Assembly: GCA_008632985.1 (NCBI GenBank)
Contig: QPGO01000034.1
Coordinates: 263,311-327,310 of the forward strand
Source of the DNA: Psammoneis japonica
Taxonomy: Eukaryota
Reading direction: 5' to 3'
DNA: 64,000 nucleotides
Position numbers and translations under genes: made by a program. This document shows, in pieces, positions 5,400 through 62,826 of the stretch. The notes beneath the pieces are model-generated. The model was not told the DNA's origin and searched no databases. It saw nothing but the letters and a program-made list of their open reading frames with translations. Each line of letters begins with the position of its first letter. Within the stretch, counting starts at the first letter, position 1.

Positions 5400-8300
5400 C
5401 TAAAAGACATCGACATACAATGGCTATCCAGCAGTTCCTCACATCCAGCCACGGTTACACAATGAGTGGGATTTGCACAGCAGAGTTCGTTGAAACACAC
5501 TGTACGACGTCAGCAAGAACATGTGTCTGGCATGCACACATCTGTTGCACTTGGCAGTAGATCGAGATATGAGGCGTCATAGTCGTACAAACGTCATATA
5601 GTCGTAGTGGGTAGAACCGACTTCAACTACGAGATGCATCATCGCACATTGAACTTCCACAAGATGTCGTTCCCGCTGACGTTCATGACCTCACCGGTGT
5701 GATGCCGCTGCTGTTAGCAGTGCATCCCAATGTAGAACGCACGAGCGAACGATGACGTGTCAAGTAAATTGAGACGAGCGATCTACAACGTGTCGGGTCC
5801 ATCAATCATGCACGGAAGTTTGCTTCAACCCTCATTTTTCATGAGATCTGAACTTTTGCAAAGGAAGACTCTCCAGCCATCTCGACACAAAGCATCACCA
5901 GTTGCAGCTGAGACAACATCTGCGGGGACCAGAATGCACTGGTCGCAGAGTCTGCAGAGACCGGGAAACACCGGTTGCAGATTTGTCATTTCGCATTCAT
6001 TGTTGTTCATTGCACTCTTGATGTGCTGAAGATTTGTTGCACACACTCGTCTGCTGAGTCCAGAAAACACTGGAAGTGGACCCTGCAGTGACTGGGAACA
6101 CCAGTTGCAGGTCGGATTGTCTGCCATCTGTTGATCACATTGACTTCACTCCGACCATTCTCATTGCAAGTCTCATGGGTCGTCGTGTTATCTGGTGTGC
6201 ACCTGTTGCTGCGTTGTTGGTTCAACTCATCTTTGCGCAGTGTGAGCCTGCCGTCACAAGCTGTCTCATGGATGACAGCAACACCAGGCACCGAGACAAC
6301 ACAAACAGACGTTTTGAGAAGCTTTTTGTTGCAGGAATGGAAACGAGCACGTCCCTTGGGTTTGTTTGGTGTGTGACAGATTGTTAAAACCGTCTCAGAC
6401 TGCTCGACTTTCTATCAACAGATTGAATGAAGCCAGACACCTGTTGGCTCCATCTGAATGGAACCAAGTGTCGGAAGACCTGCACGATTGTTGTCGCATC
6501 GATGACGACCACATTCCACGGGATTGCCGATGGATTTCCGACCTGTTGCTTTCGCCAAGAGCTCGACACATTGTTCCGAACGACAACAGAAGGTCTGAAG
6601 GATTCACTTGTTGCAGGCCTTGCAAAAGAAGTCTCTGCACTGCTTCTGTGCCTCTGTACGCAATGGCAAATAATTGCTGTTTTGGAACACCACCACCTGA
6701 ATTATCGTGTCTTGCCGAAGTGGAACTGGCTTCATTGACACCTGTGAAAACATGTGGCTGCTGCTTCAGTTTTGTCGGTGGCAAACAGAAGAAACTGCAA
6801 GGCAGTCTTTCCCATTGCAAGATAAACACACAAAGAGCATCGCCCGCACCATTGTGCACTTTGACGTGTTGAACCTTCATCAAAATGTGGTTGTGTTGGC
6901 ATCCGGCAAAATGACACCAGAGCAAAGGCGAGTGGCCAGACAAAAGAACAAAATCAGGACTCACTGTGTAATGAGAGCACTAGAATGGCTTGTCCATCAC
7001 CACGAGAATTGGATGAATCAAGACATCGATCTAGAGGAAGTGCGAAGTAATTTACAGAATCCAGTTTTAGTGGACAACAGCAGTTTGGACGAAAGCGAAA
7101 ATGCAAACATTGAAACCACGGAGTCCTGCAGTGTTTGTTTCCCCGATGGCACCGTTTCTTCAACAACTGGTGGACAACGTAATTTAGACAGCTTCAAAGA
7201 CTTGGTGCACGATGCAGCTGCAAGCGGTTTTGACATTGAATTCAAAGCTGATCTTTTGAAAGAATCAGTCAGTGACTTTAAGGATGACAACCTGGCAAAT
7301 GCTTGCTTGCTGCAATTTCCTTGTGGGCGTGGCGGCATTGATGAAACAAGAATGAAAGAAGACGGGAGTCTCGCCGACTGTGCAAATCTAGCACATTGCG
7401 CAGATCACTTGGCCCGCATTTCTCAGCCCCATTTCCACAAGCAACTCTTTGTTCTGACCCTGTGCAATCTGACTGTGAAGCAACGAATGGTGCACAGTGC
7501 TGGATGGAAAGTAAGAGACAAAAATCAAGCCAGACAATTCTCAAATGAACTGACACAAGACGACGTCGACCGTGCCACACATGATGGACAGACTGGTGAA
7601 CGCAGGAATTATGCATTGGGACATCATTTCTTGAGTGCAGTGGATGTGGTGTCGGCATCTGTTCCACACACAAATGAAGCAGCAAAAAAAATGAGAAGAA
7701 ATGCTGAAACCCACCAACACCACTTTGGACAACCTGGAGCATTTTTAACGACAAGCCCCGATGATGCCAATTCCTTTTTAGTTCAAATTTGTGTGGACAC
7801 ACTCATCGACAAAGGCAGAGATGTGACAGAAATGTCGGATGAAGAATTGGCCGAAAAGGCTAAGGCAAGAAACGAGCTTCGTGTGGAGCACCCGGGTGTC
7901 ACGGCTTTTGCACTCGAAATGTCATTGGAAATCATCATGGAAGAAGCAATGGGATGGGACTTAAAAAGGAATTCACCCAGAGAAGATTTTGAGTTCTACA
8001 TGGGGAGACCCTCCGCTTTCATAGCTGCAATGGAAGAACAAGGTAGACTCTCGGNNNNNNNNNNNNNNNNNNNNNNNNNNNNNNNNNNNNNNNNNNNNNN
8101 NNNNNNNNNNNNNNNNNNNNNNNNNNNNNNNNNNNNNNNNNNNNNNNNNNNNNNNNNNNNNNNNNNNNNNNNNNNNNNNNNNNNNNNNNNNNNNNNNNNN
8201 NNNNNNNNNNNNNNNNNNNNNNNNNNNNNNNNNNNNNNNNNNNNNNNNNNNNNNNNNNNNNNNNNNNNNNNNNNNNNNNNNNNNNNNNNNNNNNNNNNNN

Positions 8301-9430
8301 NNNNNNNNNNNNNNNNNNNNNNNNNNNNNNNNNNNNNNNNNNNNNNNNNNNNNNNNNNNNNNNNNNNNNNNNNNNNNNNNNNNNNNNNNNNNNNNNNNNN
8401 NNNNNNNNNNNNNNNNNNNNNNNNNNNNNNNNNNNNNNNNNNNNNNNNNNNNNNNNNNNNNNNNNNNNNNNNNNNNNNNNNNNNNNNNNNNNNNNNNNNN
8501 NNNNNNNNNNNNNNNNNNNNNNNNNNNNTTCCAGATGCTGCATGCAGCCATCACATGCATGCTAACATCGCTTGTTTTTCTAAGCTGAAACAATTTCCAA
8601 AAAACAGAAAAAATTCCGAGAATGAAATGACCACCAGTGGAAGCGCGCGCAAGCGTAAATTGCACGAGATGCAAAATGCCAATTGCCGTTTCAATCTCCC
8701 CGCCGCACACAGTAAATACAATGTAATCAGGAAAGCTCACAATGCAAAAATTAAGTGGTTCTCTTGGGATGGCTCATTCCGTTGTAGATGCGTCAAAGAA
8801 ATTGTCCCCAAGAGGAGAAAATGCGATGCTTTCCAGAATGCACCGTGCCCTGCAATCAGCAGATCTAAGCTGACATGTAACACAAACATCGCAATTCCAA
8901 TGCCAGGCATCCCAGGTGGATCATGTAGAACTCAAGCACAGCAACAAAAGCATCGATCCACCCACCTTTTCGCTTGAGCCTGAGTCTTCCACTTTCAAAG
9001 CCTGTTTGAAGGACCCAACCCAACAGATGACAGCTGAGGAAAAAGAGAAACATGTGCTCGGACTGAAAGTAACCCAATTGCCCTTCACAATGAACAATGC
9101 GACTACAGGACACAAGCTTCAAGGAAGCGGTGTCGACAATGTGTTTGTACACAGCTGGAGCTGTGCACAAAACTGGGCATGTGTCATGCTCTCCAGGGTT
9201 AAGACCAGAAATGGTCTGTATCTTCGGCAACCGCTGAAGAGAGATTTAAGTCCACACAGACTGCCGGACGGGTATAACGCCCTGCTCCGGTTGATGGAAG
9301 GAAGAAGTGTCACACACTTCACCAACGAACAGTGTGATGACATTTTGCAGTCCAATTGACAAGTGGAACATTTTGACACTGCACATGGGAATTATTTCTA
9401 CCTTTTGGAAAATATTCCAGGCTTTATACG
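5400..9430 (+). mobile_element. Decayed Helitron (Rep/helicase remnant) with an assembly gap (8055-8528) and apparent internal deletion of most of the helicase; termini not resolved
   Basis: Helitron-associated CxxC...PLYAMANN...PPELSCL segment (~6610-6730); LLQFPCGRGG; Rep motifs FGQPGAFLTTSPDD and EEQGRLS; HHMH...CRFNLP; PIF1 C-terminal motifs TGHKLQG and WACVMLSRVKT (~9105-9205). Frameshifted; conserved Tyr positions read Cys/His. Confidence 0.85.
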
Positions 9431-38991: not shown

Positions 38992-39685
38992 ACGGTACTG
39001 TACGGTAGTGGCCCTATCGGAGACAGTCGCTCGCGCTGCCTCGTCTTCTTTCAGCATTTTTATTTGATTGATGGTTGTCAATTGATTGCGAATGGCACCA
39101 TCAGTCAGGTGAGTTGAAAATGTGTGTTTCAGTCGTACAGTTGCTGCAAGATCAAACAATGATGAGATTGTGATGCACTTACGAGTGTGGTTGACATTTG
39201 CACAAAACTCTTGATTGCTGCTCACAACATGAGATGATGCATCTCATTTTTCTTTGGATTTTTCAAAAGAAAATGCTGGCAACACAAGCNNNNNNNNNNN
39301 NNNNNNNNNNNNNNNNNNNNNNNNNNNNNNNNNNNNNNNNNNNNNNNNNNNNNNNNNNNNNNNNNNNNNNNNNNNNNNNNNNNNNNNNNNNNNNNNNNNN
39401 NNNNNNNNNNNNNNNNNNNNNNNNNNNNNNNNNNNNNNNNNNNNNNNNNNNNNNNNNNNNNNNNNNNNNNNNNNNNNNNNNNNNNNNNNNNNNNNNNNNN
39501 NNNNNNNNNNNNNNNNNNNNNNNNNNNNNNNNNNNNNNNNNNNNNNNNNNNNNNNNNNNNNNNNNNNNNNNNNNNNNNNNNNNNNNNNNNNNNNNNNNNN
39601 NNNNNNNNNNNNNNNNNNNNNNNNNNNNNNNNNNNNNNNNNNNNNNNNNNNNNNNNNNNNNNNNNNNNNNNNNNNNNNNNNNNNN

Positions 39686-55254: not shown

Positions 55255-55774
55255 TCTTTACGAATTTTTCTTTCACAAAGAAAAATGAGGTAAAGCGTAT
55301 TGAAACGTCAGAGCGAGTTTCTCGTTGGCGGAGTCTGGTCCAAGGTTGGAAGGTTGCGATGTTCGATTGCTCCTTGGTTGTTCGCAACAACATGGTGCGT
55401 GCGTGCGTTGGGGCATTTTTCCCGGGACTGCCCGCGAGTCGTTGCATTCTCGCACACGGGACTCAGTAAACCGTTTTCGCATAAAAGCAAATAGAAGATT
55501 TAACGTTGGATTACCGGTCAACAGATTTGGCGGAGGCTCAACTCGCTCCGCGCACCTGAAAACTCCCTCCACCTTCGGCGGCGTTCAGCCAGGAAGCCAG
55601 CGCATTCATAACCAACTCCGAACTCACTCCGACCTCCGACCTCCGACCTCCGACGCCGTTCACCGAACTTGTGGATCTGATCTGCTCATCATTGTGCCTA
55701 CGGCCTACGGCACCTCTCCCTTTTACGTCGAAGGTCGACACATTCTTGCTGTTACCGCCCATTTCTGTAGACAG

Positions 55775-56671
55775 ATGAAGGTGTTCTTGCGTTACGAGGA
55801 TAACAACAACAAGGATCTTCACAAGACGTTGAAAATTACGCTACCCAAGTCTTGGAAGAATGGTCCAACTTCTCGTCTAGTGGCTCAGTTTGTGGAGTCG
55901 TACAATTCGAACGAAACGCTTGGATCCCTGAACTCTTTAAACGAAGACGACTTGCATTTGGAGCTGCAGCAGAATGGTGGAGAGAAGCTCTCTTTGCCGT
56001 CGGATGCCGTTGTGATTGAGGTCATTCCCGATCGTTCCGACGTCTTTGTAGTTCATGGTGCATCTAGTTCTTTGAAAGAAATCGAAGATGCCGAGAGGGA
56101 GCAACGTGAAAAAGAACAGGAAAGGTTGGCCAGCACGGTTGCATGCACACACTTTGGTTGTAAGAATCGTTTCCCCAAAGGTGGTCCATATCCATCGTGT
56201 ACGTTCCACAAGTCACCTCCGGTTTTTCATGAGACGGCCAAATTCTGGAGCTGCTGTCCAAACAAGAAAGCCTACGACTGGGAAGACTTTCAAAAGATTC
56301 CCGGTTGCCAAACAGGTGTATGCACCGACAAGAAGGAAGAGGATCAAAAACAATTTCTGGGAGGGACTGACCTGCGTGCTCAAGCCGGAGAGGCCTCGAC
56401 CCTGAAATCGATCGATGACTTCAACAAGTCACAAGCTGCCGGAGGATCCGATGCCGCACCCGTGCTAGATCGCTTGAAAAATGTTTTGGGAGAATTAGGG
56501 ATTGAAAATGAGCTATACGATCAGGTAGTAGAAGGTTTGAAACGAGAATTCGGTGGCGAAGACGCGGCAGAGGATGATCCTCAAGTTTTATCTCATGTTG
56601 CGAGGGAACTAGGTGTCAAACTCAAAGCCGCCTTGAAGGATATCGCAGTTGAACAGCTGCGAATCAAGTAG
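55775..56671 (+). CDS. CHORD-domain (Cys/His-rich zinc-binding) protein
   Basis: CTHFGCKNRF...CTFHKSPPVFHETAKFWSCCPNKKAYDWEDFQKIPGCQTG; probable start MKVFLRY at 55775. Confidence 0.88.
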   Translation: MKVFLRYEDNNNKDLHKTLKITLPKSWKNGPTSRLVAQFVESYNSNETLGSLNSLNEDDLHLELQQNGGEKLSLPSDAVVIEVIPDRSDVFVVHGASSSLKEIEDAEREQREKEQERLASTVACTHFGCKNRFPKGGPYPSCTFHKSPPVFHETAKFWSCCPNKKAYDWEDFQKIPGCQTGVCTDKKEEDQKQFLGGTDLRAQAGEASTLKSIDDFNKSQAAGGSDAAPVLDRLKNVLGELGIENELYDQVVEGLKREFGGEDAAEDDPQVLSHVARELGVKLKAALKDIAVEQLRIK

Positions 56672-57207
56672 CACTATTTGTGATTTAGGTCTAGAGTCTA
56701 GACGATGAGTAGCGCCGGTGACTTCCGCACGCCGAAGAGAGCACGAAATCTTGCGTGACCAGCAAATGAAAACGCCTTGTCCATCAATGTAACACACAGC
56801 AGACTGCTTTCAGCTTGAAGAAATAGCGAAACCGCTGTCGAAACTTTAATAGAGAAACTGTGAAAATCAGAATGATCTGCTTCCGCACGCATACTCTCTA
56901 GAGTAGAGAGTATCTAACGCAACATAAACTCTAGGATGGGCGTCGTCTCAAGGATGTAGGCTACATACTCCGAGTCTATCGCGTCGTCTGTCATCTGCGT
57001 GCGGCGGCGCGCTCGCTCGCCTGTGATTGAGTTGGTGTCCCTCCCTGCTCCATCCGTCACAAAACTTCGACGAGCAGTGCAACGACGCGGCGAGCCACGC
57101 ACAGCAAGCACGAGACGGTTACCGAAGCAGTCGCAGTATGCATAAGACGAGTACGGAAGGGTCAGGAAGTGAGTTCATTTTTTAATCTTTAGTTTGAAGG
57201 TGTCACA

Positions 57208-60200
57208 ATGTCAGAGTCTGGGGCAACAAAAGTAGGCGAGCAGAGAGATGAGTTTTCACGTAGTACTACCACCACCACCATCACCAACACGACGCCTGAG
57301 CTCGAATGTGGAACGAGCTTGGCGGAAGGCGAACATTTCGACGATAAGGCTCCAACGCACGGTCATTTGCATCAAAAACAGGAAAACTCCATCGATTCTT
57401 TGCGTTCTTTGATCGCCTCCGATGTAATTTCTTCATCTGGTTCGATCGAAACGTTTGTATCTCCATTCGAGGTTCCCACGAAGGGAAACAGCGCAGACCG
57501 GAAGAATCTATCGGTACCTCTTGTCTATTGTGACCAGACTGCATCAAACCGTCCTTGCCGAAGCATCGAGAAATACATCTCACAAACGTGCCTACCTCTT
57601 TATGGAAACACGCATACGAACACGAGCGTCACTGGTAGTCAGAGTACCGCTTTTGTCGCTGAAGCTCGACAAATCGTGGCCGAAGCGACCAACGCGAAAA
57701 TTACTGGAAAGGCCAGTTTGGATGTGGTACTTTTCGCGTAAGTGCCAGTGGTAGAAACGCTATCTTGTCTCCTCGTTTTATCTGTGTCTCATTTAAAAGT
57801 ACTGCTACTAATTTTGTGGAACTTTCAAGTGGCAATGGTACAACCTCGGCGGTGGAGTTGCTTATTGACTGCCTTGGAGTGAAGCACGCAGCGCGGCTAC
57901 TGGCGATAATCACGAAGAAAATCGCCCGGTTGTTTTCATAGGTCCCTATGAGCATCATTCTAACTTGTTACCATGGCGAGAATCTGGATGCGAGATCGTG
58001 ATGGTACCGGAATGTCAAGAGAGCAAAAGCGTCGACATCGCAGCTCTGGAAAGGTCGTTGAAGTCACCAAAGTACGCTCATAGATTAAAAATGGGGACAT
58101 TTAGCGCTGCGTCAAATGTCACCGGAAAAGTTTCCAAAGTGGACGAAATTGCGTCAGTATTGCACCGGCATGGAGCACTTGCATTTTTTGACTATGCGAC
58201 CGCTGCACCATACATGCCCATCAACATGAATCCCGCCCCATCCGAAAGATACCCCACAGCATCTCTTGTTGCCAAAGACGCAGTGTTTTTGAGCCCACAC
58301 AAAATGCTGGGTGGCATCGGTACGCCCGGAATCTTGATTATCAAGAAGCACCTTGCGCAGCAAACGACTCCTCCTCATCGCAGTGGTGGCGGCACTGTTT
58401 TTTATGTCACCAATACGCATCATCGATTTTTGAGCAACAGAATTGAACGTTACGAGGGAGGAACTCCAAACATTTCTGGAATAATTCGTACTGGACTTAC
58501 CTTTTTGTTGAAACGTCAAGCTGAGGAACAATACGCAATGTTGCAGTCCGAAGCGGCAGAAGACAAAGTGCTAGATGCTTTGCCGAGCACTATTTTGGAG
58601 AACGAGTATCATACCTACTCACATGTCCTCGAGGTTTTGAAAGAAAGAGCCCCCAATCTCGTATTGTTGGGATCAGAGGAGACAACTGATCGAAACCTGC
58701 CGATCTTCTCGTTCCTCGTTCAATGTGGGGAACGCTTTCTCCATTACAACTATGTGTGCGCAATTTTGAATGATGTTTTTGGTATCCAAAGCCGAGGGGG
58801 GTGTCAATGCTCTGGTCCATACTCGCAAAAACTCTTAGGTCTAACAACCATAGGTGCTAATGGCGTGGAGGTGCCAAACGAAGAAAATGATTTGATTGAG
58901 CACGCCCTTGTGCACTGCAAGGAACGGGCAGAACTGTTGCGTCCAGGATATACCCGACTGAGTCTTCCTTTCAAGGGCCTTACGACAAAGGAGGTGGACT
59001 ATGTCCTCAGGGCTTTGGAGTGGGTTTCTGCGCATGGTTGGGCTCTCATGTGTCACTACAGGTGCAACCATCGGACTGGTGAGGTGCGTTTTTGCTGGTC
59101 CTTTGGTTCCGCGTCATGTCGACGATTGCGAACTCAGGACCTTTGTTCTTTTTCATAATTACAGTGGCGACACAGCAGTAGACAAGGAAAGCCTCTGGGA
59201 AGGACCGAACGCAAGTGGCTGAGTCATTTTGATTTTTCTGGGTCTAGCACGAATATCGATTCGGAAGCGGCGTCTCGTGACATTGCCGACGCAGAGACTC
59301 TTTTTGACGATGCACTTGCCAATGCTGATGCATTACTGGAAACAGCGAGGTTAGATCGAAGCAGTATAATGCAGGTTCTGAGGATGAATGACACAAGCAA
59401 TATGCTGGGCAACGACGATGAAGCCATAGAAACCTTGCGCTGGTACGTTTATCCAAAGGAGGTGGCGAAGTGGCTCTCTGAGGGTACCGCGCCGACCCAT
59501 GTTGCCAGTTCTCACATTCTGGGGGCTATTCACCCTGTGGCTCTCGGTCGAAAAATAAATGCAAGTTCTCGTCATGGCAACAAGAAGACAAAGAAATCAG
59601 AGCAAGCTAGCGGTGATTACGCAGCTGACGCTTCAACAAACCAGAATAATTCGAACTCTCCCTCAGGAAGCGAACAATGCACCAATGGAACCTTCAGTTC
59701 ATCGAAGGGCTTGCTGCGTAATAGCAATACAACTGAGTCCCTAATCGTATTCTTCAGGGACGGGGAACACACGGGAGAGGCACCTTTGCAAGAAATTGAA
59801 AATGGACGGGATGAAGGTGAACTTTCCGAATATTGCGAAGTGTTTGATCAGACCACCAATACTTGGGTACCCATTTCTGATATCTCGAGTTTCAGGAAAA
59901 CGGAGCAGAAAGAGGAATGTGATTGTGCAGCATCTGCCACGGGGGCGATTTTAGATGCCCATTCGGGTGTGTCGCCGAAACAAAGCGAATGGCCTACAGC
60001 GACTCCTGAATCTACTAATACTACAGCGAGCTCGTCAGTCGCTGGTCTAAACGCGGTCGACCCCATAAACCATCGCAAAAAGCCTCCTCGAGATAGTTCA
60101 AGCTGGGGACAAGCGCCATTGGTTCAAATCAATGGTGCCGATACACTCAACGTCGACATTCCTCGAACCAATGGGACGACGAAAAGTAGAATGGCGCCGT

Positions 60201-61279
60201 GGATAAAACCGCCATCAAAACTGATGAGAAACATCACCCAGGCTGTTCTTCAATGGAACATGATTGAAGAAGGTGATAGATTGCTTCTTGGACTGTCAGG
60301 CGGGAAAGATTCTCTCAGCCTGCTTCATTGCCTGCTGGAATATCGACGGCGAATGCCGTTGAATTTCACAATTGAGGTTTGTACTGTTGATCCGATGACT
60401 CCCTCTTTTGACCCAAGCCCACTTGTCCCTTACGTCGAGGGTATGGGGTTGAAATATCACTATATCCGAGACGACATCGTTTCTCGAGCAAGTTCAAGTG
60501 GTAAGGATGGAAAGGTCGTGTCTTCGCTTTGTGCTTTCTGTGCACGCATGAAGAGAGGAAATCTCTACGCTTGTGCTCGACGAAACAAGTGCAATAAGTT
60601 GGTTCTTGCGCAACATCTCGATGATTGTGCCGAGTCGTTCTTGATGAGCACGATGCATAATGGGTTTCTTCGAACTATGAAAGCAAACTATAGAATCAAT
60701 GCCGGTGACATCTCTGTAATCCGTCCCATGGTGTATTGTCGAGAGTCTCTCATGACTGAGTTTGCAAAATCTGCTAATCTTCCGGTCATCAATGAGAATT
60801 GTCCCGCCTGTTTTGAGGAGCCCAAGGAACGCGCGAGGATGAAGGCGTTATTGAGAAGAGAAGAAGCGCTGTATCCTCACATCTATGAGAATATCCGTCG
60901 TTCATTGATACCTTTAATGCATGATGATGCAACGGGAATAATGCGCTGCTACACTGAAGAAGCTGTCTCAAAAACTCGCAAGGTTGGCAAGAATGCGAAA
61001 GCGAAGAAGATTTCTCAGCTAAAGGCGGAAAAGGAAGCACTGGAGAAATCAAGAAGTGAGCAACCAGTTTTATCTGAAGACGTAGCGAAACGCAGTGGTA
61101 AGCTTCTCGAAGAAGCCGACGAAGAAGAACTAATAAGGGAATTGACACGGCGGAAAGCGGATAGATTCAGGTTATCGGGTGCAATGGGCCGATTGGCGAA
61201 TGACGGAGATGAAACGGGACAAGTTTGTACTCTGAATGGCGGCAACGGTACCATTTCCTGCCGAGAGCTCATGGAATAG
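57208..61279 (+). CDS. Fusion of a class V PLP aminotransferase (cysteine desulfurase-like) and a TtcA-type tRNA 2-thiolase; introns 57738-57829 and 59084-59164; apparent 1-nt frameshift ~57890
   Basis: YCDQTAS, YGNTHT, GPYEHHSNLLPW, SPHK, RYEGGTP, GIQSRGGCQCSGPY; after the second intron the frame runs unbroken into LSGGKDS, SLCAFCARMKRG, LAQHLDD, IRPM and NCPAC. Confidence 0.85.
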
Positions 61280-61489
61280 AGATGGGACGGCTTGATGCAA
61301 AGAGGATAACGCGAACTAAACGTCTTCCTTACATTGACATAAAGTTATAACAATTTTGTTTAGCTTCGTAGATCAAGATTCCTGTAGCTACCCCCCTCAG
61401 GTCGCTTTTCTCCAACTTCCCACGCTGTATCATGTTCCACTTAATCTAAGGCGGTTGTGACTGGCGGCAAGTACAGAGAAGATGTCATA

Positions 61490-62826
61490 TCATACCACAA
61501 AGACAACGATGAGTATTATAAGAGCAGAAGTAGAAGCAACCGTGAGAACCGCAAAAGCAATCTCGACCTTTCTGAATTTTGTCCATGCGTTTCGCCTCTG
61601 CGGTTCAAGACCTGGATGGCGCCTGTCATCTGCCTCACTCTCCGATGCCTCGTGAATCGATGCCAAAGAACCAGCGCGAAAACCACGAGACACAAAAGTC
61701 CCATCCCGTAGGGTTGAAATATCATCAGCATCGTGGTACACAGGGATCGTCTGAGGCAGAACTCCCCGAGAGAAAATTGGCTCAATTGTTTTCTTGGACA
61801 TGGGCTTGCCGACAGTTGACAAATCACTTGCGGCTGCAGCAATTTCTTCGGAAGTCATTCTATTCAAATTTTCTTGTGTCATTGGTGCCACTTTGTCAGT
61901 GGCGTCCACAATAATTCCCTCACGAGTGCATTGAAAAATGGCGCAAAAATCAATATTTGACTCGGGATCAAATTCTATTCGATTTTCGGACGAGTCTAGA
62001 CTGACAGAGTCGCTCTCGTCAAATGATTGTTTCCTGTCGATTCTACTTTTCATATTCCGCAACTTCTCTGCTTGTCTCAGCAACTTGACCATGAAGGGTT
62101 CATCCCCACTTTCTGAGTCTGTGTCGAGATCATAGTGTGGTCGTTGTCTTGATGTGACTAGTTTTGTCGCTCGTTTCTGTGTTTTATCAGAAGATACTTC
62201 GGAATGCTGTCAAAGACTGAAGTAGTGTCAGCTTCATCCCGAGTCACAGCCGATTCTGGTGGCTCAGCTTTTGTGGTGGAAAGGCGTTGGTGGCATGACT
62301 TTTCTTTGGGTGTGATGCGGGTGAATTCTCAAAAGCAGAGCTGGCGTAGTCCTTGTACTTGTTGACATCAGCGAATGAGCTCTCCGTCGAACTTTCTATG
62401 TTAGTTAAGCTTGGCATGTCCTTGTCTCCGTCTTCAATGAGTTGTTGCACTTGTTGGACAACAGAAAGTGACATGTCGCCCGTCGTGCCAACGCGAGTGA
62501 CCGTGACAAGTACGAGAGAGCTGCGACTCTTACAATATCAACAAATTGGTATTGATTTGAATAACGTATGACATGAAGCGGTGCGTAGCCGAGAGATTAG
62601 TAATTGGTCGTTATCACTTGACACTCGGAACAGCAACATTCTTCGGTGCTTGGCGTTTTTTGTTGTTGTTGAAGAAAGCATGGCGGGAAAGCATGACTTG
62701 CAGTCCTGCGACATTCACGACACTTTTCGAAAGAGCGGTAGTCGTAGAATTAGTACTAGAGCCCACGCACGATGGCGGCAAGTTCATTGCATTTTTGTCG
62801 ATGTCCTCGTTTCCATATATTTTCAA
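61490..62826 (-). CDS. Hypothetical low-complexity protein with a C-terminal transmembrane segment; exon structure uncertain
   Basis: Consecutive minus-strand ORFs (62614-62826, 62244-62474, 61490-62092) linked by a likely intron and frameshifts; ends IAFAVLTVASTSALIILIVVFVV. Confidence 0.5.

Follow-up and report, generated by a model that had tools for sequence, protein, structure and literature searches.

A spliced gene of the diatom-type alga Psammoneis japonica joins a SufS/CsdA-type cysteine desulfurase-like domain to a TtcA-like tRNA thiolase domain

Introduction

The modified nucleoside 2-thiocytidine at position 32 of transfer RNA (tRNA), s2C32, has to our knowledge long been held to be confined to bacteria and archaea. 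Fusion of a module that mobilises or carries sulfur to a module that uses it is a logic known from two other enzymes: ThiI is a PP-loop synthetase of 4-thiouridine at position 8 (s4U8) fused to a rhodanese persulfide carrier, and in MOCOS/ABA3 a NifS-like domain is joined to the domain that accepts its sulfur. Here we describe a gene of Psammoneis japonica that lies in a 64,000-nucleotide stretch of DNA (contig QPGO01000034.1 of assembly GCA_008632985.1, positions 263,311 to 327,310; referred to as the window in the rest of the paper, with all coordinates counted from its first letter). A single spliced nuclear gene of this diatom-type alga (57208-61279, + strand, three exons) encodes both a pyridoxal phosphate (PLP) domain and a TtcA-like PP-loop domain. 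Its domains and chemistry differ from those of ThiI and MOCOS/ABA3, and the resemblance to these two enzymes is one of analogy only.

The TtcA enzyme of Escherichia coli and Salmonella has a PP-loop, two CxxC motifs and three cysteines that hold a [4Fe-4S] cluster, without zinc fingers. All of these are shared by the C-terminal domain of the P. japonica protein, but the bacterial enzyme is a stand-alone protein of 311 residues that obtains sulfur from IscS in trans, whereas the protein described here is fused. According to the mutagenesis reported by Bouvier in 2014, C122, C125 and C222 are essential ligands of the TtcA [4Fe-4S] cluster (PMC4081106; also PMC5372739), and the open iron site of this three-cysteine cluster is the sulfur acceptor in the favoured mechanism (PMC4081106).

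The closest described system is that of the mollusc Aplysia. A preprint of September 2026 (bioRxiv 10.64898/2026.09.27.754811) reports s2C32 in Aplysia tRNA-Lys(UUU), the first eukaryotic s2C, together with a fused 'IscS-TtcA' protein of 1177 residues (Aplysia californica LOC101861551), and records the fusion in molluscs, with birds and insects added as data not shown. Beyond this preprint we found no other published description of the fusion, and nothing on it in algae. The Aplysia protein resembles the product of the window gene in its domain order, its CsdA-type PLP domain, its long variable linker and its TtcA-like domain, as well as in the conserved PLP lysine, the Cys-x-Cys, the SGGKDS motif and the C..CxFC..CPAC pattern; animal members such as that of Acropora are about 51% identical to the window protein in the PP-loop domain. 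In contrast to the Aplysia protein, the window protein comes from an ochrophyte alga, falls in a separate clade and has a C-terminal cysteine-pair tail (almost absent from animal members), an ECGTSLAE motif and a weak GYF-like module. Moreover, the preprint calls the PLP domain IscS-like, with a catalytic cysteine that could not be identified, whereas here the domain is SufS-type by comparison and its C504 aligns with the SufS catalytic cysteine.

We consider it likely that the gene is transcribed and spliced into a single mRNA and that in the fused protein sulfur from the desulfurase domain is passed to the TtcA-like domain for tRNA thiolation, the product most likely being s2C32 of cytosolic tRNAs.

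Results

One spliced gene encodes both domains

Three sequencing runs from one sample of one study (X1, X2 and X3; none recorded as RNA, all typed 'DNA?') were aligned to positions 57000-61500. X3 gave no sequence from this interval; X1 and X2 stem from one sample, which is possibly the source sample of the window. One X1 contig spans the whole of 57000-61500 and retains both introns. An X2 contig of 1451 nt joins 57737 to 57830 and lacks the 92 nt between them, which have GT..AG ends. A second X2 contig, of 2532 nt, covers 58744-61326 and joins 59081 to 59163; the 81 nt that it lacks (59082-59162) can be placed just as well with a shift of two bases to the right, which gives 59084-59164, with GT..AG ends. 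The X2 contigs skip exactly the two introns that an earlier reading of the letters (referred to as the original prediction) had proposed. The second contig crosses intron 2 and continues through the linker and the PP-loop domain to the stop, and therefore in the spliced form the PLP domain's end is connected with the TtcA-like domain: the locus is a single fused gene and does not split into two. That removal of 59084-59164 keeps both domains in frame, as had been predicted, is borne out by the reading frames and by this contig alike. The gene is laid out as follows.

57081-57207, + strand: 5' untranslated part; the X2 spliced contig starts at 57081
57208-57737, + strand: coding part of exon 1, its end confirmed by the X2 joint of 57737 to 57830
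57738-57829, + strand: intron 1, 92 nt, GTAAGT..CAAG (GT..AG), skipped in the X2 contig and kept in X1
57830-59083, + strand: exon 2, with the main body of the predicted SufS/CsdA-type PLP domain (PF00266, TIGR01979, SufS chains of the Protein Data Bank (PDB), hhalign)
57892-57893, + strand: base missing from the window; a T is inserted behind 57892 in both runs that cover the site (2/2)
59084-59164, + strand: intron 2, 81 nt, GTGCGT..TACAG (GT..AG), phase 0, from the X2 contig and the reading frames
59165-61279, + strand: exon 3, within a single 706-codon open frame (59159-61279) with TAG at 61277-61279
61280-61326, + strand: 3' untranslated part; the X2 spliced contig ends at 61326

With the T added at 57892/57893 and both introns removed, the predicted product has 1299 residues (about 143 kDa). 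An in-frame stop at 57190-57192 precedes the ATG at 57208. Exon 1 encodes an acidic, Thr-rich N-terminus with ECGTSLAE, followed by the start of the PLP domain (LVYCDQTAS... YGNTHT). Removal of intron 2 joins exons 2 and 3 in frame, and exon 3 encodes, in this order, an extension of the PLP domain (WRH..RKWLSHF, LRWYVYP), a variable linker, the TtcA-like domain, a charged stretch and the cysteine-pair tail, the linker between the two domains being about 350 residues long. An open frame of 706 codons that starts at the PLP domain's end, crosses the linker and continues to the stop is far longer than expected by chance.

In the window, the frame of 57831, reading GNGTTSAVELLIDCLGVKHA, meets a stop at 57939-57941, and the frame reading ...RPVVFIGPYEHHSN is offset from that of GNGTTSAVELLIDCLGVKHA by one base. 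The frameshift that the original prediction had placed near 57890 is therefore present in the window but absent from both covering runs. The T behind 57892 restores ...GVKHAAAATGDNHEENRPVVFIGPYEHHSN..., in agreement with homologues; the codon at the inserted base specifies Ala whichever base stands there, and the protein goes on ...GVKHAAAATGDNHEENRPVVFIG..., as in homologues. Because the T is present in 2/2 covering runs and homologues read straight through, we attribute the frameshift to a fault or variant of the window's assembly, which would otherwise break the annotation of the fused gene. The break in the window sequence speaks for a pseudogene, yet both covering runs carry the extra T, everything downstream of the break is intact and the catalytic residues are all conserved, so that we assign this explanation a negligible probability. 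We also weighed a tiny intron at the break and discarded it, as the only GT..AG there spans 13 nt and the runs instead add a base. Elsewhere, letters at 57675, 57907, 59253 and 60161 differ from the window in both runs, base 59089 (intron 2) is left out in X1 only, and both runs have an extra T at 61457, downstream of the gene; such scattered differences suggest small errors in the window assembly or allelic differences.

The PLP domain resembles SufS and CsdA

Two motifs of the PLP domain are central to its classification.

58292-58303, + strand: SPHK, with the codon of the PLP-binding lysine (K335) at 58301-58303
58793-58810, + strand: RGGCQC; the Cys-Gln-Cys of RGGCQCSGP occupies 58802-58810 (C502 and C504)

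Exon 2 matches Pfam Aminotran_5 (PF00266, E 6.5e-26), and its translation matches the SufS subfamily of NCBIfam (TIGR01979, E 1.8e-25, 89.7 bits). On its own, the exon 2 piece found SufS-type chains in the PDB (best 5b7s, E 8.8e-15), and on the E. coli K-12 chromosome it matched only sufS (E 1.6e-12) and csdA (E 4.3e-7). A profile of 75 full-length family members reached SufS in the PDB with E 3e-50, CsdA with E about 1e-30 and NFS1/IscS-type chains with E about 1e-14. Comparison of the family profile with E. coli SufS by hhalign gave a probability of 99.8 over 378 columns and paired SPHK with SGHK, and IQSRGGCQCSGP with IAVRTGHHCAMP. From these comparisons the PLP domain is classified as a predicted type II, SufS/CsdA-type cysteine desulfurase of a distinct subfamily, not an IscS-type one; the idea of an IscS-like domain is contradicted by the profile, hhalign and chromosome comparisons alike. 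Because the second cysteine of the CxC aligns with the catalytic cysteine of SufS in R(T/A)GHHCA, C504 is the candidate catalytic, persulfide-forming residue. With SufS/CsdA (TIGR01979; PDB 8d8s, 1i29, 5ft4) the domain shares the fold family, the PLP lysine and the catalytic cysteine in R-x-G-x-x-C-A. It differs from them in having RGGCxCAGP, with a second invariant cysteine, in place of RxGHHCA, in a conserved extension of about 100 residues behind the domain and in its fusion to a thiolase.

To assess conservation, the window protein was aligned with 75 proteins chosen from 260 (at least 900 residues, with a PLP match spanning the domain; n = 76 in all), with which it aligns end to end. Invariant in 76/76 are D298, H334, K335, R499, C502, C504, S973-S978 (SGGKDS), C1054 and H1079-x-D1081-D1082; C1051 and C1141 are each kept in 75/76, and C1144 in 74/76. 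Conserved elements, namely TGEW.H, R.WLS and an invariant Trp in LRW(F/Y), continue past the SufS-homologous part, and the 'linker' therefore begins with a conserved extension of the PLP domain.

Some of these features would also suit a PLP domain that is not the sulfur donor to the nucleoside and that instead builds or repairs the protein's own [4Fe-4S] cluster, or works as another class-V enzyme, for example a selenocysteine lyase. Among solved structures, enzymes of the SufS/CsdB type also bear the name selenocysteine lyase, the domain scores far under the SufS cut-off, a SufE-like acceptor was not found in either linker or tail, and the invariant C502, the RxWLS extension and the invariant Trp in LRW have no counterpart in SufS. 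However, the lysine, the catalytic cysteine and the arginine of R-x-G-x-x-C-A are invariant, TtcA requires desulfurase-derived persulfide sulfur (PMC4081106), and the retention of the fusion across supergroups is most simply explained by substrate channelling. We therefore regard such a role as improbable and favour a PLP domain that supplies sulfur to the TtcA-like domain.

The C-terminal domain is TtcA-like

The C-terminal domain and its motifs are located as follows.

60170-61000, + strand: TtcA-like PP-loop domain (NF007972, PF01171, alignment with E. coli TtcA)
60296-60313, + strand: SGGKDS of the PP-loop (S973-S978), invariant in 76/76
60530-60541, + strand: CAFC, aligned with C122/C125 of E. 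coli TtcA
60800-60811, + strand: CPAC, aligned with C219/C222 of E. coli TtcA, C222 being the third cluster ligand

Exon 3 matches Pfam ATP_bind_3 (PF01171, E 2.9e-12), so that both Pfam domains anticipated by the original prediction were found, as were all of its motifs (SPHK, RGGCQC, SGGKDS, CAFC and CPAC) at the positions that it had given them. Among NCBIfam models, TtcA (NF007972) tops the C-terminal domain with 193.1 bits (E 6.5e-57), against 53.5 bits for TilS-N (cut-off 93.6), 23.8 for TtuA (cut-off 450) and 23.4 for NcsA (cut-off 500). CAFC and CPAC are the only CxxC motifs in the 1299-residue product, and the extra zinc-finger CxxC pairs of Ctu1/Ncs6/NcsA/TtuA are not present in it. 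The scores, of which none of the other PP-loop thiolase models exceeds 53.5 bits, and the two CxxC motifs agree with the proposal of a TtcA pattern rather than one of Ctu1/Ncs6/TtuA, and in the NCBIfam ranking, in which TtcA is far ahead, the domain did not group with Ctu1 or TilS. Alignment by BLASTP gave 31% identity to E. coli K-12 TtcA over 234 residues (E 3e-42), with C1051, C1054 and C1144 as the equivalents of the TtcA ligands C122, C125 and C222. No TtcA structure was present in the PDB copy that we searched, the nearest chains being NcsA (6scy) and TtuA.

Whether such a domain would still act on C32 must be weighed against its divergence. The same fused protein might be built on a diverged TtcA paralogue that thiolates a different position or nucleoside of tRNA, some other RNA or a small molecule, as would agree with a TtcA score under the equivalog cut-off, with only 31% identity to E. 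coli TtcA and with a eukaryotic clade separated from it by a long branch. In addition, the Aplysia tRNA-Lys(UUU) lies outside the four E. coli substrates, which are tRNA-Arg and tRNA-Ser species (PMC5372739). Against another substrate, the domain retains the PP-loop and every cluster ligand of TtcA, no other model comes near that of TtcA, and s2C32, from the Aplysia preprint, is the only experimental correlate so far. We accordingly hold another substrate to be unlikely and s2C32 to be the favoured product.

A cysteine-pair tail is common in protist members and almost absent from animal ones

Two further features lie in the linker and at the C-terminus.

59756-59887, + strand: weak GYF_2-like module in the linker (PF14237, E 0.16, 12.2 bits, cut-off 25.8), suggestive only
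61226-61261, + strand: C-terminal cysteine pair C1283...C1294 in the tail TGQVCTLNGGNGTISCRELME, from alignments and motif counts

Counting as a tail any two cysteines 2-12 residues apart within the last 30 residues, we found it in 34/76 full-length proteins, compared to 6.4% of random 30-residue windows of the same proteins. The pair is present in 124/174 proteins that have at least 100 residues after CPAC (matches to the window query together with cluster representatives), and in 1/88 proteins with a complete C-terminus in the animal-centred set obtained with an Acropora query. The cysteine-pair tail, common in protist members and almost absent from animal ones, is a feature not described so far; a part as persulfide shuttle or resolving pair is speculation.

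The protein ends in ...LME, for which reason a targeting tripeptide of the machinery for iron-sulfur assembly in the cytosol (CIA), [LIM]-[DES]-[WF] as given in PMC10245660, was rejected. At the other end, the N-terminus is acidic and free of any hydrophobic stretch or hydrophobic signal peptide, which argues against plastid, secretory or mitochondrial targeting and would favour the cytosol, a compartment in which it would be sensible for the enzyme to have its own sulfur source built in. The ECGTSLAE motif upstream of the PLP domain (57301-57324), which contains one cysteine, is common to the diatom and bolidophyte members P0010, P0019, P0049, P0081, P0087, P0109 and P0123. In the linker, KKPPRDSSSWG (59906-59938) recurs as KKPxRDSxxWG in diatom and bolidophyte homologues about 50 residues before the TtcA-like domain and is not conserved family-wide. 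Kelch and UPF0242 matches in the linker were weak and were disregarded.

The fusion is widespread in eukaryotes

The PP-loop domain query returned 911 proteins of 387-1232 residues at E up to 0.001, the best 120 of which were inspected. Among these 120, 45 carry PF01171 together with PF00266, and 75 carry PF01171 alone, mostly on short contigs. Named fused members include Thalassiosira transcriptome open reading frames and proteins of Seminavis robusta (annotated 'cytidine(32) 2-sulfurtransferase'), Mayamaea, Skeletonema, Triparma, Bolidomonas, Paraphysomonas and Acropora, and transcript-derived full-length orthologues exist in Thalassiosira (P0010, labelled 'type:complete', and P0019). A HMMER search of 1.84 billion cluster representatives gave 6254 matches with E of 0.001 or less, 368 of them with E of 1e-30 or less; the same PLP domain is present in 95 of the best 150 representatives and in 67/68 of those with at least 900 residues, and cluster look-ups led to Rhodelphis, Besnoitia, Chromera, Perkinsus and Amoebophrya. 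With the Acropora protein as query, both domains are present in 104 of the 120 proteins listed, the sources being cnidarians, sponges, placozoans, echinoderms, hemichordates, amphioxus, tunicates, molluscs, an annelid, a brachiopod, a nemertean, ticks, spiders, horseshoe crabs, crustaceans, mayflies, a nematode and a tardigrade. The fusion is widespread in eukaryotes, occurring in diatoms, bolidophytes, a chrysophyte, alveolates, Rhodelphis and most animal phyla, and the window gene is an algal member of an already known, widespread family that is present in databases. The suggestion that the architecture might exist unannotated in other eukaryotes was right as to its presence elsewhere; with its wide distribution and its description in the Aplysia preprint, the architecture is not rare, and it is not unannotated.

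These counts bear on the question of whether the locus might yield two separate proteins, through an internal start or cleavage of the linker, and be fused at gene level only. The linker is long and poorly conserved, cleavage is raised as a possibility in the Aplysia preprint, and the PP-loop part alone makes up the majority of the 120 proteins listed for the window query. Yet a single X2 contig runs from the PLP domain's end into the TtcA domain and on to the stop, within the 706-codon open frame, and the short database entries are mostly on short contigs, whereas the long representatives are, with one exception, fused. We judge a production of two proteins to be highly improbable and retain the fused polypeptide.

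A PP-loop tree was built from 62 rows, comprising the window, 26 named and 34 unnamed hand-picked proteins, and E. coli TtcA as the single, long-branched root. The window falls in a diatom clade (8 rows, SH-aLRT support 98) adjoining bolidophytes (13 rows, 97), within a larger group of diatoms, bolidophytes and chrysophyte (27 rows, 96). The alveolates cluster together (9 rows, 91), and all 14 animal rows form one group (17 rows, 96) with the eukprot entry Nk52 and two unnamed sequences. This pattern, drawn with a single outgroup, fits an old, mainly vertical inheritance of the fused gene, and the agreement of the domain tree with organismal groups speaks for selection having kept the fused state over long times. 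The Thalassiosira transcriptome sample that contains P0019 also holds a longer fused form (P0126 and P0261, of 1612 and 1655 residues), which lies in the diatom clade on a long branch, suggesting that some diatoms may hold two paralogues. Its linker shows sub-threshold GYF matches (GYF_2, E 1.1e-4 in P0126; GYF_ATXR3, E 7.7e-5).

Among GTDB genomes, a PLP-domain query, at a sensitivity that reaches only close relatives, found a single locus and no bacterial fused or neighbouring form. This locus (L004, 1-11219) is on a contig of a metagenome-assembled genome (MAG) labelled 'uncultured Verrucomicrobiota bacterium' and consists of diatom-like DNA with a CHORD-domain gene followed by the fused gene, with intron-like gaps and frame breaks. 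Its GC content falls from 0.64 to about 0.47 near 2 kb, which together with the diatom-like genes suggests that the bacterial MAG is contaminated or includes a chimeric contig. Two Atlas searches returned only generic bacterial PF01171 and PF00266 clusters.

Genomic neighbourhood

The upstream neighbour of the fused gene in the window is likewise a CHORD-domain gene (55742-56668, + strand; PF04968, E 6e-17), and the presence of this gene upstream in both the window and L004 makes the pair syntenic in another diatom-like genome. The further neighbours, a condensin Cnd1-like gene, a HAT-repeat gene, a DAO gene and an HMG-box gene, are ordinary nuclear genes. No tRNA genes were found within the 64-kb window. 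Downstream, a 239-codon open frame (61493-62209, - strand) has no Pfam match, and an X2 contig reaches into 61367-61500. Runs of N marking assembly gaps lie at 8055-8528 (474 bases) and 39290-39685 (396 bases).

Discussion

The mechanism that we favour would proceed in four steps. Judging by its family, the SufS/CsdA-type PLP domain would draw sulfur from L-cysteine and store it as a persulfide on C504. From there, directly or via the cysteine pair at the C-terminus, the sulfur would reach the free iron of a [4Fe-4S] cluster whose ligands are C1051, C1054 and C1144. The SGGKDS PP-loop would adenylate the target, C32, whose activated oxygen the sulfur would replace, and the most likely product would be 2-thiocytidine at position 32 of cytosolic tRNAs. 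Desulfurase activity, intramolecular sulfur transfer, the substrate, the cytosolic location and the making of s2C by this alga are what we infer from family membership and conserved residues.

Several points weigh against this reading. The type of run X2 is a guess ('DNA?'), so that the spliced form is taken to be complementary DNA and is not recorded as RNA, and 58683-58743 is uncovered by the listed X2 contigs, with the consequence that the whole coding sequence does not lie within one contig. The TIGR01979 score of the exon 2 piece (89.7 bits) is far under the curated cut-off of 475.1, and the TtcA score of 193.1 bits is below the NCBIfam equivalog cut-off of 272, which makes the C-terminal domain TtcA-like and not an equivalog by threshold; judged by the curated thresholds, then, neither domain counts as an orthologue. 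An acceptor (SufE, SufU or CsdE, for instance) is normally required by type II desulfurases, and no acceptor domain of this kind was detected in linker and tail with E up to 1. Finally, what ties the fusion to s2C32 in Aplysia is co-occurrence and not a genetic test (bioRxiv 10.64898/2026.09.27.754811).

The cysteine-pair tail gives a hint of the way in which a type II desulfurase could dispense with a separate acceptor protein. The pair C1283/C1294 may be a persulfide shuttle, a two-electron resolving pair or both, functions for which bacteria use separate acceptors (dithiothreitol, DTT, in vitro). On this basis we tentatively put forward, as an idea with a modest chance of being correct, that the diatom and protist enzyme is a self-contained cytosolic sulfur relay, in which the pair would swing between the persulfide of the PLP site and the [4Fe-4S] cluster and which was lost in animals. 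If this were true, cytosolic tRNA thiolation in these algae would be independent of the Nfs1/Urm1 route for sulfur.

To the fusion family our analysis adds a predicted SufS-type domain with a candidate catalytic cysteine, a lineage-specific cysteine-pair tail and the recognition of the frameshift as an assembly fault. Ochrophyte algae carry and splice a fused gene of the kind proposed for eukaryotic s2C32. Since some model diatoms can be genetically engineered, they could provide a knockout test for the enzyme proposed to make this modification in eukaryotes.

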